From an uncultured Candidatus Rokubacteria bacterium (GTDB taxonomy: Bacteria; Methylomirabilota; Methylomirabilia; Rokubacteriales; CSP1-6): 64,000 nucleotides of DNA. Below are positions 44,471 through 57,339 of the stretch, piece after piece. The notes beneath the pieces were generated by a model that made no database searches, was not told the DNA's origin, and saw nothing but the letters and a program-made list of their open reading frames with translations. Where the stretch lies: assembly GCA_963758635.1 (NCBI GenBank), contig CAVWWD010000007.1, positions 1-64,000 on the forward strand. Reading direction: 5' to 3'. Numbering within the stretch: position 1 is the first letter of the stretch; the number at the start of each line of letters is the position of its first letter. Position numbers and translations under genes: made by a program.

Positions 44471-45706
44471 ATGCCGGACTACGAACTGTATGTCGGTGTG
44501 GATTGGGCGACGCAAACGCATCAGGTCTGCCACGTGAGCCCGACCGGACAGCGGCGGCGGGAGTACGCGGTGGCCCACTCCGGGGCTGGCCTGGCCGCGT
44601 TGGTGACGGCGTTGACCGAGGAGCACGTGGACCCGGCGCACATCGCGGTCGCCTTGGAGGTGCCCCGTGGCGCGATCGTGGACGCGCTGCTTGCCGCTGG
44701 GTGTCACGTCTACGCGGTCAATCCCAAACAGCTCGATCGCTTCCGCGATCGCCATAGCGTGGCCGGGGCCAAGGACGATCGGCGTGACGCCTTCGTCCTG
44801 GGCGATGCCGTGCGCACGGATCGGGCCGCCTTCCGGCGGGTCACGGCGGAGGATCCGCGGCTGCTCCAGTTGCGCGAGGTGTCGCGGCTGCACGCCGAGT
44901 TGGTCCAGGAGCGGCTGCAGCTCGGCAATCGCCTGCGTGAGCAGGTGCACCGCTACTTCCCCGCGCTGCTGGGCCTGTGCCCGGCGGCCGATGAACCGTG
45001 GCTGTGGAGCCTGCTCGAGACCTGGCCGACGCCCGCGCACGCGGCGCGCGCGGGCCGGCCGGCCCTGCGCCGGCTGCTGGCCCGCCATCGGATCCGCCGG
45101 CTGACGGCGGACGCCGTGCACAGCGCGTTGCAGGCGCCGCCGCTGCCGGTGGCGCCGGGGACCGTGGAAGCGGTCGTCGAGCATCTGGCGCTGCTGCTGC
45201 CCCGCCTCCGCTTGGCCCAGGCCCAGGAGCGGCACTGCGAGCAGCGGCTGGAGCAGTTGCTGGACGCGCTGACGGTGGCCGACCCCGCGCGGCCCGAGCG
45301 GCCAGAGCATCGTGACGTGACTATCCTCCGCTCCTTGCCCGGGGTCGGGAGAGTCGTCGCCGCCACGATGCTCGCCGAGGCGTGGACGCCGTTGGCGACC
45401 CGAGATTACCAGACGTTGCGCGCTCAGGCCGGCGTCGCGCCGGTCACCCGTCAGAGTGGGAAGAGTCGCGTGGTCACGCTCCGCCGAGGCTGCAACCACC
45501 GGCTGCGCAATGCGATGTTCCACTGGGCGCGCAACAGCATCCGGGACGATCCGCGCGCCCGGGCGCACTACGATCGCCTGCGTCTGCGTCATGGCCATGC
45601 GCGGGCGCTCCGCGGCGTCGCGGATCGTTTGCTCGGGGTGCTCATCGCCATGCTCACGAGCGGCACGCTCTACGATGCGACGCGCCGACAGAAAATTGCC
45701 GCTTGA
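44471..45706 (+). CDS. IS110 family transposase / bridge recombinase
   Basis: 411 aa; VGVDWA, ALE, KDDRRDA (DEDD RuvC-like), SLPGVG, RQSG catalytic Ser. Confidence 0.95.
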   Translation: MPDYELYVGVDWATQTHQVCHVSPTGQRRREYAVAHSGAGLAALVTALTEEHVDPAHIAVALEVPRGAIVDALLAAGCHVYAVNPKQLDRFRDRHSVAGAKDDRRDAFVLGDAVRTDRAAFRRVTAEDPRLLQLREVSRLHAELVQERLQLGNRLREQVHRYFPALLGLCPAADEPWLWSLLETWPTPAHAARAGRPALRRLLARHRIRRLTADAVHSALQAPPLPVAPGTVEAVVEHLALLLPRLRLAQAQERHCEQRLEQLLDALTVADPARPERPEHRDVTILRSLPGVGRVVAATMLAEAWTPLATRDYQTLRAQAGVAPVTRQSGKSRVVTLRRGCNHRLRNAMFHWARNSIRDDPRARAHYDRLRLRHGHARALRGVADRLLGVLIAMLTSGTLYDATRRQKIAA

Positions 45707-50406: not shown

Positions 50407-50510
50407 GACGGGCCCTAGTGTAGGAACCGCCCCACAACGTGTCAACGCGCGCGCCGAGCGAGAGCGAGGGAACCCGCCTACGCGCCTGCTATCGTGAGCG
50501 CATGCCTGCG

Positions 50511-50786
50511 ATGGATCTGGCCATCGGTGTGACGAGTCTCCGGGCGCGGTTGAGCCACTACCTGCATGCGGTCTCCGCCGGCGCCACCGTCACGATCAGC
50601 CGCCATCGTCGGCCCATCGCAAGGCTCGTTCCGATCGTGCGATCCCCGGGCCTGGACGTACTCGATCTACTGGCGAAGCGCGGAGTGCTGCAGCACGGTA
50701 CTGGTAAGCCCGGCAAGGCCCGGAGGGTGAGGCTCCGGAAGGGCAGCCGCCTCGTTTCCGGTCTCGTGATCGAGGATCGTGGCTGA
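50511..50786 (+). CDS. Phd/YefM-family antitoxin (orphan)
   Basis: IGVTSLRARLSHYL..V.AG.TV.ISRH.RPIARLVP; no toxin gene follows on this strand. Confidence 0.75.
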   Translation: MDLAIGVTSLRARLSHYLHAVSAGATVTISRHRRPIARLVPIVRSPGLDVLDLLAKRGVLQHGTGKPGKARRVRLRKGSRLVSGLVIEDRG

Positions 50787-50812
50787 TCCTCGCAGGGCCC
50801 TCTTCTGCGGCG

Positions 50813-51040
50813 TCAGCGGTTGCGGTCTTCGCGAATGAGGCGCACGCCGCGCGATTTGTGCAGCGGCTGACGCGCGCGGATCTCCGCGGCACGAGCGGCG
50901 ATCTCGGCGCGGGTTGGCCGTGTCCCCTCGGTCAGGATGCGGCGCACCTCCTCCTCCACCGAGACGCCGTGCAGCTGGGCCTGGAGTCTCAGTCGCTCTG
51001 CCACCTCGTCGTCCAGTTCGTGCACGATGATCGTCGCCAT
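50813..51040 (-). CDS. FitA-like ribbon-helix-helix antitoxin (copy downstream of toxin)
   Basis: MATIIVHELDDEVAERLRLQAQLHGVSVEEEVRRIL...IREDR. Confidence 0.85.
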   Translation of the reverse strand: MATIIVHELDDEVAERLRLQAQLHGVSVEEEVRRILTEGTRPTRAEIAARAAEIRARQPLHKSRGVRLIREDRNR

Positions 51041-51049
51041 GACCGGTAG

Positions 51050-51517
51050 CTATCCTTTCCAGATCTTGATGCCTAGGCGATCGGCCGCGCGTCGAAGCCG
51101 GTCGTCTGCGGTGGCCAGGCGCGCTGACCCCCTGATGGCGAGCATCAGGTAGAGGCAGTCATAGACTGGATGGTCGAGGTCTGCGGCAAGACGCGCCGCG
51201 GGTCGAAGTAGCGGCGTTGATGGGGTCCAGGCAATGCCGAGCGCGAGCAGGTGGGTGATGGCGCGCTCGACGTTGGACAGATCCATCTCGCCGCGTCGCT
51301 GTCGCTTCCACCACGCGTTGGTAACTTCCACGGCCATCAGGTCGGGCGCAAGCAATGGTATCTCGCTGGTCAGGAGCTCCTCTGAGTGCCACGGATCGCG
51401 CTCGTTCGCGAACCAGTGGAACGCGATCGAGGCGTCGACCACCACGGGCGCGACGGACGCGTCGTAGGTCGCGTGCCGTTCGCGAGCGTGCCGGCGTACC
51501 ACCCGGGGTGACCTCAT
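51050..51517 (-). CDS. vapC: PIN/VapC toxin
   Basis: VVVDASIA..W, APDL...EV.N, HPVYDCLYL, LATAD. Confidence 0.9.
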   Translation of the reverse strand: MRSPRVVRRHARERHATYDASVAPVVVDASIAFHWFANERDPWHSEELLTSEIPLLAPDLMAVEVTNAWWKRQRRGEMDLSNVERAITHLLALGIAWTPSTPLLRPAARLAADLDHPVYDCLYLMLAIRGSARLATADDRLRRAADRLGIKIWKG

Positions 51518-51741
51518 CGGTTTCGGTCTTCGCGGATCATGTCCACGGCGGTCGATTGCGTGAGAGGCTGCCGCGCACGGATCGCCGCTGCCTGCGCAGC
51601 AATCGCCGCGCGGGTCAACCGGGTGCCATCGGCCAGAACACGCCGCGCCTCTTCCTCCACCGAGACACCGTGCAGGCGCGCCTGAAGCCGGAGCCGCTCT
51701 GCCACCTCGTCGTCCAGATTGCGCACGATGATCGTAGCCAT
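51514..51741 (-). CDS. FitA-like ribbon-helix-helix antitoxin (copy upstream of toxin)
   Basis: MATIIVRNLDDEVAERLRLQARLHGVSVEEEARRVL...IREDR; ATGA overlap with toxin. Confidence 0.88.
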   Translation of the reverse strand: MATIIVRNLDDEVAERLRLQARLHGVSVEEEARRVLADGTRLTRAAIAAQAAAIRARQPLTQSTAVDMIREDRNR

Positions 51742-51817: not shown

Positions 51818-54600
51818 ATGCCCATTCCGCTCGGCGCGCCGTTCCGTCCCGGTCTCGATCCGCTCCCCGACACGCAGCACGCGTGGGCCGTCGTGAAGGA
51901 CCAGTGGGGGCGGCCCGCGCACGCCGATCCGCGCGACGGGCTCCGGCAGATCGAGATACCGGTGCCCGAGATCGGCCCCAACGAGGCGCTCGGCTACGTG
52001 CTGCACGCCGGCCTCACGTACAACACGATCTTCGCCGCGCGCGGCGTGCCCATCTCCGTGTTCGACCTGCACGACCGCGACCTGCACGTGCCGGGCAGCG
52101 GGGCGGTGGTGCTGCTCGCCGCGATCGGGCGCGAGGTGGCGCGCGAGGGCCGGCTGCGCGTGGGCGAGCTCTACGTGCTCTACCCGGGCGTGTCGAACCT
52201 GCTCTCGCCGCGGGCCGGCGAGGATCCGATGCACGCCGACTTCAAGATCCAGGGTTACGAGACGCCCGACGGCTCCTTCTGCCAGTTCGTGCGGGGCCAG
52301 GCGCCGCAGCTCCTGGCGCACTCACGGCGGCTGACCCTCGCCGAGGGCTCGTCGTACATGCTCGACCTGGAGACGGTGTACAAGGCGCTCTACGACGTGG
52401 CGCAGCTCGAGACCGACGAGCGCGTGTTCGTGGAGGGCGCGGCGGGGGGCACCGGGATCTACGCGGTGGCGTGCGCCGCCCTCCGCGGCGCCCACGTGAC
52501 GGGCCTCGTCTCGACCGAGGAGAAGGGGCGGCTGGTCCTCTCGCGCGGCGGCCACACGTACGTCAACCGCAAGGCCGCGGACATGACGGGCGTGTTCACC
52601 CCGGTGCCGGCCGGCTCCGCTTCGCGCGCGGCGTGGAGCGCGGCGGGCGCCGCCTTCAAGGCCATGGTGCGTGAGCGGAACCAGGGGGCGCTCATGAACG
52701 TGGTGGTGTCCTCGGTCGGCCGCGACCTCTTCGGCCGCATGGTCGATCTGCTCGTGCCGGGCGGGCGCCTGGTGTTCTACGGCGCCACCACCGGCTACAC
52801 CCTGGCCTTCCTCGGCAAGCCCGGCGCCGCGCCGGCGCGGGAGATGCTGCGTCGCGCGCGTCTCAGGCCCAACGAGGGCGTGCTCGTCCACTACGGGCTC
52901 GGCGACGGGCTCGAGGACGAGGCGGGCGCCGAGGCGATCGAGGCCGCGCTGCGGGCGGGCGCGCGGGTCGTGGTGGCCGCGCGGCTGGACGCCCAGGCGA
53001 CGCACGTGCAGTCCACGCACCGCGTGCACGGCGTGGTGAGCCTCGAGACGCTCGACCGGGCCGGCGGCTTTCGCTGGCCCGAGGCCATGCCCGACTACGA
53101 CACCGATCGCGCGGGCTACCGCGAGTACCAGGACCTCACGCTCAAGCCGTTCGGCCAGGCGGTGGGCCGGCTCCTCGCCACGGCCGACAACCCCCGCGGC
53201 AACCCCGACGTGGTCGTCGAGCGGGCGGGCCGGGACACGCTCGGCGTCAGCACGTTCCTGGCGCGGCCGTTCACCGGCCGCGTGGTCTACGTCGAGGTGA
53301 CGCGCGACCGGCGCTTCTCGTTCTACGCGCCCAACGTGTGGATGCACGAGAAGCGCGTCCTGTTCCCGACGTTCTCGATCCTCGGCTCCCACCTGTCCAA
53401 CGCCCATCAGGCCGAGGAGGTCGTGCGGCTGATCGACGCGGGCGCGCTCGCCATCCATCCGCCCGTCGTGCGCGGCTGGGACGACCTCGCGGAGCAGCAT
53501 CAGCTCATGCACGAGAACCGCCACGCCGGCACCACCACCATCCGCGTGGGGGCCGGCCCCGCCCTCGACGGCGCGCGCACGCGCGCGCGAAGTCTACGAG
53601 GCGTGGGGCTCGCGCTTCGCCGACGGCCGCGACCGTCCGCCTGCGGCTGGATCCGGTGGCGCCGGGGCGGGAGGAGCGGGTCGCGCTCGTCACGATCGAC
53701 TCGCCTCCGGCCAACGCCATCGGCCTCACGGTGCTCGAAGAGCTCGAGCGGGTGGTCGAGACCCTGGAGAGCGACACGACGGTGCGCGCGGCGGTGCTCA
53801 CCGGCGGCGGCACGATGTTCGTGGCCGGCGCCGACATCCGCCAGCTGCGCGCCTTCGCGACGCCGGACGACGTCGAGGCCTTCACCAGCTCGCGTGCAGC
53901 GTCTCTTCACGCGCGTCGGTCGACTGCGGGCGCCCGTGATCGCCGCCGTGGACGGCTATGCGCTGGGCGGCGGCAACGAGCTCCAGATGGCCTGCGCGTA
54001 TCGCGTGGCAGGGGAGCGCGCGGAGCTTGGTCAGCCCGAGATCAACCTTCACGTGCTGCCCGGCTTCGGCGGCACCCAGATGCTGCCCCGGCTCGTGCTG
54101 CGCAGGAATGTGCGGTGAGCGGTCGGGCGGGCGAGACGGGCTGGTCGAGGCGCTCGCGATGCTCCTGGACGGGCGGCGTCGCACGGCATCGGCCGCGCTC
54201 GCCCTCGGGCTGGTCGACGAGGTGGCCCCGGCCGATGCCCTGTCACACGCCTTGTCAATCGCGCGCCGTGTCGCGCTGGGAGAGTTTCAGGGTACCCTGT
54301 GGTCGCCGCTGGCGGCCGGCGCGGAGATGGACACCGGGGCCGGGCGGGAGGGGTGGGAGGCGGCTCAGACTTACCCGCGCATCGGACGGATCCTGCGCCC
54401 ACCATGGCACCATCGACCGGCTGGCTCCAGCCGGGGCCACGCTGGAGGCGGTCCGGACTGGCTTGTTCGAGGGGGTCGGGGCTGGCCTCGCCCGGGAGGC
54501 TCGCCTCTTCGGCGCGATGGTGGCCTCCGCGGAGGGTAGGGAGGGGATCGACCGCTTCCTGTCCCGCCAGTCCTGGGCGCTACCCCTCCGCGAGGGCTGA
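51818..54600 (+). CDS. Pcs-like enoyl-CoA (carboxylase/)reductase fused to a C-terminal enoyl-CoA hydratase (frameshifts near 53590, 53630, 53890, 54115, 54400)
   Basis: MDR domain with [43 protein letters not shown]; then crotonase motifs [39 protein letters not shown]. Confidence 0.8.
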
Positions 54601-54785: not shown

Positions 54786-55013
54786 ATGAGCGAGAACCGG
54801 CCTGACGAAGTTCAGTCGCCTCTGGAGCACAGCGATCCGATCGAGCAGGCCCCGGAGCAGCTCCAGCGGGAGATGAATCGACGCAAGCTGCTGAAGGTGG
54901 CCCTTGCGGCGCCGCCCGTGATGTGGACTCTTCGCGCGCGGCCCGCGTCGGCCGATCACGCCCTGGGCACTCCAAGCGGAGCACTTTCGGGGAACCTGTC
55001 GAACCATCCGTAG
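54786..55013 (+). CDS. Small peptide, putative precursor/substrate of the downstream enzymes
   Basis: 75 aa, AAGGAG RBS; acidic N-terminus, NRRKLLK, AAPPVMWTL, ASA|DHALGTPSGALSGNLSNHP. Confidence 0.7.
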   Translation: MSENRPDEVQSPLEHSDPIEQAPEQLQREMNRRKLLKVALAAPPVMWTLRARPASADHALGTPSGALSGNLSNHP

Positions 55014-55049
55014 GCTCTGGAGGGCCCCGCGTCTCACGCCTCCCGCTGA

Positions 55050-55346
55050 ATGGACACCCCTCCGAGCGCCGTATGGCAGGTCTCGGAGGGGTGTCAGTTC
55101 GTCTGGCAACTGTGGGATGATGAATACGTCGTGTTCGACCACGGCTCCGGCAGCACGCACTTCCTCGATCTGATCGCAGGCGAGGCCCTTCAGACCCTCG
55201 TCCAGTCCCCTTCGGACGTTCCCGGGCTCACCTACCGTATGGCGTCACGGATGGGTATCGAGTCCGACTCCGCCCTCGAGCAACGCATCCGAGACACGCT
55301 GGACCGCTTTCGCGAGGCCGGGCTGGTCGAGCCGTCTCTGACGTGA
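55050..55346 (+). CDS. PqqD/RRE family peptide chaperone (HPr-rel-A system type)
   Basis: 98 aa; WDDEYVVFDHGSGSTHFLD...L..AGLVE winged-helix pattern. Confidence 0.85.
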   Translation: MDTPPSAVWQVSEGCQFVWQLWDDEYVVFDHGSGSTHFLDLIAGEALQTLVQSPSDVPGLTYRMASRMGIESDSALEQRIRDTLDRFREAGLVEPSLT

Positions 55347-56279
55347 CGGCCGGCGAGATCTCCGCCGCCGAGTTCACCGAGCGGCTGGCGCACCCCGGGA
55401 TCACCCTCGACACCGGGGCCTTCTCGATCCAGCTTCAGGCCTCCGCCATCGATGGGCTCGGCCAGGATCTCCACTTCCTGTACGCCGACTGCCCGATCGT
55501 CCCCGATGGCGAGATCGTGGATTTCCGTGTTGCCCTCCGGCGGCCGTCGGGCCTTCGCCGGTGGTGGCGGCCCCAGGTCCGGATCCTCTTCGACGGGGCG
55601 AGCCTGGTCGAGCCGATGCCGCTGGCCGTGGCGCTCCCGGCGCTCGAGTGGGGCCTGAACTGGGCCATCGCCGCCCATGCCCACCACCACGTGATGATCC
55701 ACGCCGCCGTGCTCGAGCGGGACGGCCGCGCGGTGGTGCTGCCCGGCACTCCGGGGGCGGGCAAGAGCACGCTCTGCGCCGGGGCTCGCCCACCGGGGCT
55801 GGCGGCTCCTCTCCGACGAGTTCGCGCTGCTGCGCCCGGCCGACGGTCTTCTCGTGCCCTGGCCCCGGCCGATCAGCCTCAAGAACGTCTCGATCGACGT
55901 CATCAGGGCGTTCGCCCCCGACGCCCGCCTGGGGCGGAGCGTCCCCGACACCTCCAAGGGCACCGTCGCGCTTCTCCGGCCGCCGCCCGAGAGCCGCCGG
56001 CGCATGCGGGAGACCGCCGAGCCGGCGTGGCTCGTGTTCCCCGGCTATCGTGCGGGTGAGCCCGCCCGGCTCACCGCGTTGCCGCGCGCGCGCGCGTTCC
56101 ACCGTCTCGCGGAGATGTCGTTCAACTACGCCATGCTCGGCGCGCCTGGGTTCGAGACGTTGCGCCGCATGGTCGGCGCCTGCGACACCTTCGAGTTCAC
56201 CTACGGAGAGCTCAAGGAAGCGGTGGAGCTCTTCGGGGCGCTGGCGCCGCCGCGCTCGACGCGTGTCGAGGGAGCCTAG
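55343..56279 (+). CDS. HprK-related kinase A (frameshift near 55787)
   Basis: LEWGLNW, IHAAVLE, Walker A GTPGAGKST, RLLSDE, PRPISLKN, TSKG, SFNY. Confidence 0.88.
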
Positions 56280-57339
56280 CGCGCCGCTGCTCTTCCAGGC
56301 GCTCGGTGACCCCGGGCGTCTGCCCCGCCTGTCCGTCCCGGAGTGGGACCGTCTCCTCCGCGAGGCTCGCCGCGCCAATGCCCTGGCGCGCATCGAGGCC
56401 CTGGTCGCGGACCGCGGCGCGAGTGACCGCATCCCCGAGCGGGCGCGCCAGGCGCTCGAAGGGGCCCGCCTCGTCGTGGATCAGCAACACCGCCTCGTGC
56501 GCTGGGAGGTGACGCGGATCCGACGCGCGCTGGATGGGCTCGACGTGCGGCTCGTGCTGCTCAAGGGCGCGGCCTACGTCCACGCCGGCCTGCCGCCCGC
56601 CCGCGGCCGCACGTTCAACGATGTGGACGTCATGGTGCCGGAGGATCGGCTGCCCCTGGTGGAGGCCCGCCTCCGCGCCGCGGGCTGGACCACGCTGACC
56701 CTGGACCCGTACGACGACCGCTACTACCGCGCGTGGTCCCACGAGCTGCCGCCGATGCACCATCCGGCGCGGGGGATCGTGGTGGACGTGCACCACAACA
56801 TCCTGCCGCCGGTGGGCCGCGTGAACGCGGACGCGCGCCCGCTCCTGGAGGCGGCCGCGACGATCGCGCCCGGCCTCGCCGTGCTGGCGCCCGCGGACAT
56901 GGTGCTTCACACCGCGGTGCACCTGTTCCAGTCCGGCGAGCTCCATTCCGCGGTGCGGGATCTCACCGACCTGGACGCGCTGCTGCGCCACTTCGGCCGC
57001 GACCCGGGCTTCCCGGACGCCGTGGTGGCTCGCGGGCGCGCGCTCGGCCTGGGCCGGCCGCTCTACTACTCGCTGCGGCTCGCGCGGCGGCTCCTGGGCA
57101 CGCCCCTTCCGGCGGGGATCGAGGAGCGGGCGGGAGCGCCGTCGGCCCCGGTGCGCGCGGTCATGGACGGTCTGGTGGCGCGGGCCCTCGTGCCGCGGCT
57201 GCACGGCGAGACTCCGCGGGGCGCGGGACTGTCGCGGTGGCTCCTCTACACCCGATACCACTGGCAGCGCATGCCGGCGTGGATGCTGGCACGGCACCTC
57301 ATGCACAAGGCCATGCCGCGCCCGCGGCCGGTCAAGTGA
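56263..57339 (+). CDS. Nucleotidyltransferase family protein (NTP_transf_5-like)
   Basis: LLKGAAY, R.FNDVDVMV, YYRAWSHELPP, VDVHH, DL.D. Confidence 0.88.
   Translation: MSREPSAPLLFQALGDPGRLPRLSVPEWDRLLREARRANALARIEALVADRGASDRIPERARQALEGARLVVDQQHRLVRWEVTRIRRALDGLDVRLVLLKGAAYVHAGLPPARGRTFNDVDVMVPEDRLPLVEARLRAAGWTTLTLDPYDDRYYRAWSHELPPMHHPARGIVVDVHHNILPPVGRVNADARPLLEAAATIAPGLAVLAPADMVLHTAVHLFQSGELHSAVRDLTDLDALLRHFGRDPGFPDAVVARGRALGLGRPLYYSLRLARRLLGTPLPAGIEERAGAPSAPVRAVMDGLVARALVPRLHGETPRGAGLSRWLLYTRYHWQRMPAWMLARHLMHKAMPRPRPVK

Follow-up and report, generated by a model that had tools for sequence, protein, structure and literature searches.

The gene at positions 51818..54600 of a 64,000-nucleotide stretch of DNA (the window; positions 1 to 64,000 of contig CAVWWD010000007.1, GenBank assembly GCA_963758635.1) raises the question of whether an enzyme related to propionyl-CoA synthase (Pcs) can naturally fix CO2. 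The source genome, G000, belongs to an uncultured soil Rokubacteria bacterium and is 87% complete. The gene encodes a fusion of a Pcs-type reductase with an enoyl-CoA hydratase and carries the pocket residues of crotonyl-CoA carboxylase/reductases (Ccr). Judged by sequence comparison, it would on balance be a two-step dehydratase/reductive carboxylase descended from the Pcs lineage.

Gene, domains and pocket residues

The reading frame starts at ATG 51818, and the translation of 51818-53593 contains the motifs on which the initial annotation was built, LTYNTIF (N69, T70), Y147, E148 and NVWMHEKR...GSHLSN (M509, H525). That annotation ended the gene at 53600, which is wrong: the frame breaks after residue 587, hydratase pieces continue downstream, and read-through leads through an enoyl-CoA hydratase domain to a TGA stop at 54598-54600. 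Its assignment to the Pcs type rather than ordinary Ccr is borne out, with Erythrobacter Pcs (6EQO) the best solved-structure match of the open reading frame (502 bits, residues 3-583 against 1234-1827, colinear over 581), whereas Ccr structures match the reductase domain in two pieces at 81-158 bits, 4GI2 being the best at 158. On TIGR01751 the reductase domain scores 210 bits, below the curated cut-off of 378.55, and its two copies of the NADPH-binding fold align to each other weakly (E 0.006).

In the read-through hydratase domain the Pcs-type motif FVAGADIRQ is present together with both catalytic-type glutamates (GGGNE and QPE), and both glutamate motifs are invariant in the family alignment. 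Aligned to relative P0003 across 925 columns, the read-through protein has 89% identity and a single gap. Each of the five one-base insertions that break the frame is missing from contigs of 1-3 public runs, which otherwise differ from the window at few letters; since these near-identical short-read contigs lack them, the insertions are probably assembly errors. One RNA run has contigs covering the gene, which does not in itself show transcription, and a promoter and terminator scan found neither.

Counted along the 6EQO alignment, N69/T70/Y147/E148/M509/H525 correspond to N1301/D1302/Y1379/E1380/T1753/H1769 of Pcs. They correspond to N81/T82/F170/E171/M356/H365 of Kitasatospora setae Ccr (6OWE), a numbering reached via P0383, a Ccr that aligns gap-free to 6OWE and to the motif columns of the fusion; for Met509 the correspondence comes from the alignments to 4GI2 and AntE. 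6OWE reads VNYNTVW, which puts Thr82 at the T70 site, and Met356 has a shielding role in Ccr. The pairing of T70 with D1302 and of M509 with T1753, set beforehand as the refutation test, is what the 6EQO alignment gives, and the residue numbers and equivalences given in the initial annotation for Erythrobacter Pcs and Kitasatospora Ccr proved right. The CO2 pocket of K. setae Ccr consists of N81, F170, E171 and H365, with T82 and S119 as second-shell hydrogen-bond partners of N81, and carboxylation is kept at 100% in F170Y and 97% in E171A (PMC6628652).

The family was collected in a near-length search with 348 matches, the best 120 of which were listed and, minus the window's own protein, gave 119 relatives for analysis. 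Asn69, Ser94, Tyr147, Glu148, Met509 and His525 are invariant in all 119. Position 70 is Thr in 116 and varies only to Gly, the residue of the 4GI2 Ccr (3 relatives, and 2 of 32 genome loci covering the site); it is never Asp. Canonical Pcs were represented by the closest 103 listed, with P0140, a frameshifted family member, dropped and P0137 counted with the family. The Asp that the initial annotation had placed after the Asn of Pcs is found in 103/103, whereas the Met site, to which it had assigned Thr/Val, holds Met in 53 of them and Thr in the other 50. Since Asp is universal in this set and Met already occurs in half of it, Thr70 and not Met509 is the residue that distinguishes the family from canonical Pcs; Met509 was rejected as a family marker. 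In six of the 103 (P0164, P0179 and four more) the pocket Glu is replaced by Asn, together with Met.

Other positions separate the two groups. D183 and E185 are present in 119/119 relatives where Pcs has N (100/103) and G (103/103), and Pro123, also in 119/119, replaces Ser or Ala of Pcs. A change at the Pro123 site may, by reports from Ccr engineering, widen the pocket. I144 and L526 are the same as in Pcs, and the family has Gly where Ccr has the Asp of GSD. Going by its residues the fusion is ECR-like in every residue test run, yet it is neither a TIGR01751 member nor a canonical Pcs. The coordinates are collected in Table 1.

Table 1. Features of the fusion gene and of other parts of the window
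Feature	Position	Strand	Remarks
Whole gene, Pcs-type reductase + enoyl-CoA hydratase fusion	51818..54600	+	925 amino acids across five one-base insertions
MDR enoyl-CoA reductase/carboxylase domain, Pcs type	51818..53566	+	residues 1-583; 502 bits to 6EQO 1234-1827
Asn69-Thr70	52022..52027	+	N 119/119, T 116/119, G 3/119 listed relatives
Ser94	52097..52099	+	K. setae Ccr S119; 119/119 listed relatives, 103/103 Pcs
Tyr147-Glu148	52256..52261	+	K. setae Ccr F170-E171; 119/119 listed relatives
D183-L-E185-T186	52364..52375	+	conserved Thr after two family-specific acids; T186 aligns to T195 of 4GI2
Degenerate second NADPH-binding fold copy	52856..53356	+	common to Pcs; TIGR01751 positions 185-318 match twice
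Met509	53342..53344	+	Pcs T1753, K. setae Ccr M356; 119/119 listed relatives
His525	53390..53392	+	Pcs H1769, K. setae Ccr H365; 119/119 listed relatives
Five one-base insertions, frame-breaking	53579..54395	+	53579/80, 53630/32, 53888, 54107, 54395
C-terminal enoyl-CoA hydratase/dehydratase domain	53635..54600	+	ECH_1 matches; FVAGADIRQ, GGGNE, QPE
IS110-family transposase	44477-45706
Phd/YefM-like gene	50439-50786	+
PIN-domain gene	51050-51517	-	one antitoxin gene (next row) on either side, the two being alike
Two FitA-like ribbon-helix-helix antitoxin genes	starts 51741 and 51040	-
Short frame with twin-arginine-like stretch	from 54787
PqqD-like gene	55050-55346		below Pfam cut-off

Ancestry and distribution

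The 119 listed relatives show 74-98% identity, 112 of them span 900-980 amino acids, and 29 of the 33 full genome loci of the family are titled Rokubacteria or Methylomirabilota. A search for longer proteins (442 matches, best 120 listed) is headed by 16 family members with 64-78% identity, 13 of which have a ligase at the N terminus (ligase-reductase-hydratase). The ligase signature DPGWITGQSY of the three-domain members recurs in 95 of the 96 canonical Pcs of full length but is missing from the Acs of the source genome; three-domain forms are named also from Myxococcales and Tectomicrobia. No N-terminal acyl-CoA ligase is found in the fusion gene itself, the best match in G000, at about 41%, being an ordinary Acs, and a Pcs-type ligase occurs in 2 of the 35 fusion genomes of the order. 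In P0003 and P0123 the reductase comes first and the hydratase second; in canonical Pcs P0138 it is the other way round. The family is a conserved, permuted, usually ligase-less and mostly Rokubacterial branch of the Pcs lineage. No literature on the reductase-hydratase family was found, with subscription papers and the supplements of two Pcs papers lying outside reach, and the available parts of PMC5663086 and PMC11599936 add nothing on it.

The MDR phylogeny called for by the initial annotation was calculated with FastTree from 254 columns (residues 40-299) and 72 chosen rows, with an unrelated MDR as the root. In it the family (0.998), together with other fusions that lack the Asp, is the sister of canonical Pcs, and the Pcs-type clade as a whole (0.998) is nested among Ccr-like proteins, adjoining duplicated-fold forms, one of which (P0281) passes the Ccr cut-off at 385 bits. 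The tree therefore sets the family outside the Asp-bearing Pcs clade, with the reservation that deep supports are moderate and several branches long. Because the family branches outside canonical Pcs, within a clade nested among Ccr-like proteins, the Asp looks derived, which suggests that it is an innovation of Pcs. The Atlas feature matches of the fusion are to Ccr-like clusters, which is a lead only.

Unusual architectures appear among the more distant relatives. P0299 (named from Omnitrophota), P0355, P0374 and P0281 combine a duplicated-fold Ccr-like domain with MaoC, CitE-like lyase, 3-hydroxyacyl-CoA dehydrogenase and glyoxalase-like domains and, by domain content, look like polyproteins of the ethylmalonyl-CoA pathway. 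Pcs-type reductase domains without the Asp occur in the giant proteins P0245 (6910 amino acids), P0249, P0324 and P0321, one of which comes from a Chlamydiota metagenome-assembled genome, and P0249 and P0324 combine hydratase, ligase and reductase domains in different arrangements.

Across 145 genomes of the order with completeness of at least 80%, the fusion occurs in 35, an ordinary Ccr in 63 and both in 1 (G055, where the Ccr is partial and lies on a 1.6-kb contig). The fusion and Ccr genomes all belong to the 127 genomes of one family, 30 of which have neither. Two of the Ccr genomes (G006 and G117) are flagged unpublished; without them 61 remain and the overlap is unchanged. A Rokubacterial Ccr representative passes TIGR01751 at 544 bits, and G000 has no second Ccr besides the fusion. 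The Fisher p of 6.5e-12 for exclusion is overstated since related genomes are not independent. A quick RpoB tree was made with 30 of 44 genomes chosen (one or two per genus); on it the fusion and Ccr states are interleaved, and the 4-5 independent pairs on well-supported branches are nearly always concordant (median p 0.125). The fusion needs 8 changes on this tree and the Ccr 7, so that one deep split as the cause of the mutual exclusion is not supported.

The locus of the ordinary Ccr persists in fusion genomes. An LLM oxidoreductase gene lies just upstream of Ccr in 18 of 20 Ccr loci and was found in 19 of the 23 fusion genomes searched; in 18 of these 19 the next gene, or the next but one where a hydratase intervenes, is a small MDR with no Ccr between, the nineteenth being cut short, and G000 has the same LLM-to-small-MDR order, its small MDR lying at C7:323061-324086. 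The small MDR is present at this locus in 33 of 35 fusion genomes, 24 of 63 Ccr genomes (G006 and G117 included) and 15 of the 30 genomes with neither. At the Glu171 site the Rokubacterial Ccr (L080-L099) has Gln, in one case Asp, and it comes closest to AntE. An F420-type LLM oxidoreductase gene precedes these Ccr genes, and genes for an acyl-CoA ligase and a CoA-transferase are often found with them.

Chemistry, substrate and rival explanations

From the domains, residues, tree position and distribution described above, we infer the chemistry and substrate of the fusion. The C-terminal domain would dehydrate a 3-hydroxyacyl-CoA to the enoyl-CoA, to which the N-terminal domain would transfer a hydride from NADPH before CO2 is added to the resulting enolate. 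Asn69 would be held by Thr70 and Ser94, a water would sit between Glu148 and His525, and Tyr147 would keep solvent out. Carboxylation is favoured because the equivalents of the second-shell Thr82 and Ser119 (PMC6628652) are both present, because the tree puts the family outside the clade of Pcs that bear the Asp, and because fusion and Ccr almost never occur together in a genome of the order. The reductive carboxylation proposed in the initial annotation thus receives partial support, from residues, tree and Ccr exclusion; the Met counts and the T82D variant of K. setae Ccr discussed below weaken it, and acrylyl- and crotonyl-CoA are both candidate substrates.

Within the carboxylase reading the likeliest route, with about two thirds of its weight, is from 3-hydroxypropionyl-CoA through acrylyl-CoA to methylmalonyl-CoA, and the other third goes to 3-hydroxybutyryl-CoA yielding ethylmalonyl-CoA. 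For the C3 substrate there are the Pcs-signature ligase in 13 of the best 16 longer members, the presence of Mcm-type mutases, and the failure to find an ethylmalonyl-CoA mutase (Ecm) motif or AcuI in the 145 genomes. The Ecm motif was sought by a sequence pattern run without a positive control (0/145), and AcuI/YhdH by a search in which three control genomes gave signal (0/145). The C3 substrate is favoured because methylmalonyl-CoA has a sink and ethylmalonyl-CoA no evident one. Methylmalonyl-CoA would feed methylmalonyl-CoA mutase, sparing the ATP that propionyl-CoA carboxylase (Pcc) costs, and the role in a heterotroph would be assimilation or detoxification, not autotrophy. The Ccr of M. 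extorquens carboxylates acrylyl-CoA too, at 40% of the rate with crotonyl-CoA (PMC10266731).

In G000 a PccB-like gene adjoins the Mcm-type mutase and the other of its two mutases, of the Icm (isobutyryl-CoA mutase) type, adjoins an acyl-CoA dehydrogenase and a branched-chain aminotransferase; there are three biotin carboxylases and one malate synthase domain, and the search for isocitrate lyase in this genome gave weak partial matches only. Mutase typing covered 30 loci from 12 other genomes, 27 of them aligned, with Mcm, Icm and Hcm assigned by specificity residues. Mcm-type and Hcm-type mutases occur in both the fusion and the Ccr groups, and the Icm type (Phe/Gln) in 11 of the 12. Another mutase, a split B12 enzyme of a fourth type (Tyr/Arg; L130-L136, L138), is present in 93 of 145 genomes, G117 and G118 among them. 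It was rejected as a hidden Ecm, being found in 23/35 fusion, 36/63 Ccr and 19/30 neither genomes and in 15/16 of a family with neither. The genes clustered with it were named by visual inspection as thiolase-, 3-hydroxyacyl-CoA dehydrogenase-, MaoC-, molybdo-hydroxylase- and CoA-transferase-like. One genome, G124, has 19 matches to the methylmalonyl-CoA mutase family compared with 3-6 in eleven others.

A tandem-SDR query for malonyl-CoA reductase found 0 in 145 genomes, the query being distant (87 bits to 8HJW) and archaeal-type reductases outside the test, and no two-SDR protein is among the 79 SDR matches in G000. With malonyl-CoA reductase not found, an autotrophic 3-hydroxypropionate or HOPAC-like cycle is unsupported. 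Elsewhere, in Deltaproteobacteria metagenome-assembled genomes, P0336 (2552 amino acids), P0357 and P0393 join a Thr-type Ccr-like reductase to a hydratase and a tandem SDR. The SDR half matches best, and weakly, 8HJW/8HI4, which we take to be malonyl-CoA reductase (Mcr), and such a fusion is a candidate natural HOPAC-like module.

Several observations weigh against the carboxylase reading. The four first-shell CO2 residues are also present in nearly all ordinary Pcs and Met in half, so that the residue argument is weaker than the initial annotation made it, and characterised Pcs that shares this pocket mainly reduces. K. setae T82D still gives 94% carboxylation, with a kcat of 0.17 compared with 103 per second (PMC6628652), and Thr versus Asp is therefore no clean on/off switch. 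D183 and E185, predicted to lie beside the nicotinamide Thr, could deliver a proton and favour protonation. A Pcs-type ligase is missing from 33 of the 35 fusion genomes, the source of 3-hydroxypropionyl-CoA was not identified, and PccB beside Mcm with three biotin carboxylases could carboxylate propionyl-CoA otherwise. The mutual exclusion, resting on 4-5 pairs and p 0.125, indicates a shared niche and not which chemistry fills it. What replaces Ccr may in fact be the small MDR at its locus, or this MDR may take part in the replacement, and the displaced Ccr, with Gln at the Glu171 site, has a putative activity only.

The strongest competitor, unlikely but to be taken seriously, is a ligase-less permuted Pcs that dehydrates 3-hydroxypropionyl-CoA and reduces acrylyl-CoA to propionyl-CoA for Pcc, with carboxylation as a side activity. 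Reductase, dehydratase and, where present, ligase all bear Pcs signatures, D183/E185 are candidate proton donors and PccB adjoins Mcm in G000. With AcuI not found in the order an acrylyl-CoA remover is wanted, and its removal by either the reductase or Ccr would also produce the mutual exclusion. This explanation has to reconcile reduction with a site at which the Pcs Asp occurs in 0/119 listed relatives, only the Ccr residues Thr or Gly being found, and with a full Ccr pocket that is invariant among them. An improbable alternative is a crotonase joined to a crotonyl-CoA reductase, supplying butyryl-CoA to isobutyryl-CoA mutase and so assimilating acetyl-CoA or 3-hydroxybutyryl-CoA without isocitrate lyase or Ecm, a route reportedly known from Streptomyces. 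The frequent Icm-type mutase, Hcm-type mutases in both groups, the missing isocitrate lyase of G000 and the alternation with a Ccr-family enzyme agree with it, and ligase loss suggests that the substrate arrives as a CoA ester; the full CO2 pocket, however, would lead one to expect carboxylation of crotonyl-CoA, and the domains stem from the C3-specific Pcs lineage. Least probable of all is that the substrate is a larger enoyl-CoA from another catabolic route, or that the G000 copy is a decaying pseudogene. The invariant Pro123 in place of Pcs Ser/Ala and the proximity of Rokubacterial Ccr to AntE point toward a larger substrate while I144 and L526, the same as in Pcs, do not, and the five frameshifts of the window's copy are set against their absence from near-identical contigs and the intact relatives.

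The reductive carboxylase remains the favoured reading. Its full form, in which the family is a natural carboxylating Pcs, an ATP-free 3-hydroxypropionyl-CoA dehydratase/acrylyl-CoA carboxylase alternating with Ccr across Rokubacteria, with a three-domain form taking 3-hydroxypropionate to methylmalonyl-CoA in one chain, is put forward tentatively.

Genomic surroundings and comparison with known systems

No pathway operon surrounds the fusion in 33 loci. The commonest neighbour, in 19 of the 33, is a fused indolepyruvate:ferredoxin oxidoreductase, which in G000 is on another contig, and two three-domain loci have no shared neighbours as compared without a family-library scan. Upstream of the fusion the window holds a toxin-antitoxin cluster (50439-51741). 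Downstream, 54787-57339 is possibly a peptide-modification cluster, including two further genes that we take to be an HprK-related kinase and a nucleotidyltransferase.

Substitution of two residues, D1302S/T1753M, is said to have turned Erythrobacter Pcs into a carboxylase; a literature search with the mutation names gave nothing relevant. The engineering cited in the initial annotation is itself documented, the Pcs reductase domain having been brought to 97% carboxylation at lowered overall activity from a wild-type enzyme that yields propionyl-CoA (PMC10266731), and three reviews (PMC10176493, PMC8252502, PMC7918591) state the engineering and the propionyl-CoA product without residues. A carboxylating Pcs with better rates would make Pcc unnecessary, saving one ATP (PMC10266731). 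The fusion family offers natural candidates for such an enzyme, with Ccr residues, more than 100 intact sequences and three-domain members, and makes a possible carboxylase origin of the Pcs lineage directly testable. If the full form of the carboxylase reading is true, the fusion would supply a part wanted for the synthetic HOPAC cycle, and ordinary Pcs might then be a former carboxylase without this activity; in soil, the result would point to an unrecognised heterotrophic route of CO2 incorporation in Rokubacteria.

Among known systems the closest is Erythrobacter sp. NAP1 Pcs (6EQO), which shares with the fusion the duplicated NADPH-binding fold, the N/Y/E/H pocket with its Ser and the FVAGADIRQ dehydratase motif, the reductase domains of listed Pcs homologues being 46-51% identical to that of the fusion. 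Its ligase type is shared with the three-domain relatives and absent from the fusion gene and G000. The domain order is (ligase)-reductase-dehydratase in the fusion family and ligase-dehydratase-reductase in canonical Pcs, and the fusion differs further in Thr for Asp1302, an invariant Met, D183/E185 and a separate clade. K. setae Ccr (6OWE) and 4GI2 resemble it in having Asn-Thr (Gly in 4GI2), Ser, aromatic-Glu, Met and His at equivalent positions. Unlike Ccr/ECR, the fusion has a 583-residue duplicated-fold domain, a fused dehydratase and 210 bits on TIGR01751 against a cut-off of 378.55, and no ethylmalonyl-CoA pathway context was found for it in a genome that is 87% complete. From the engineered Pcs of the HOPAC cycle (PMC10266731) it differs in being natural and in lacking an identified malonyl-CoA reductase partner, whereas the proposed reaction, acrylyl-CoA + CO2 + NADPH to methylmalonyl-CoA, and the scaffold on which it would take place are the same.

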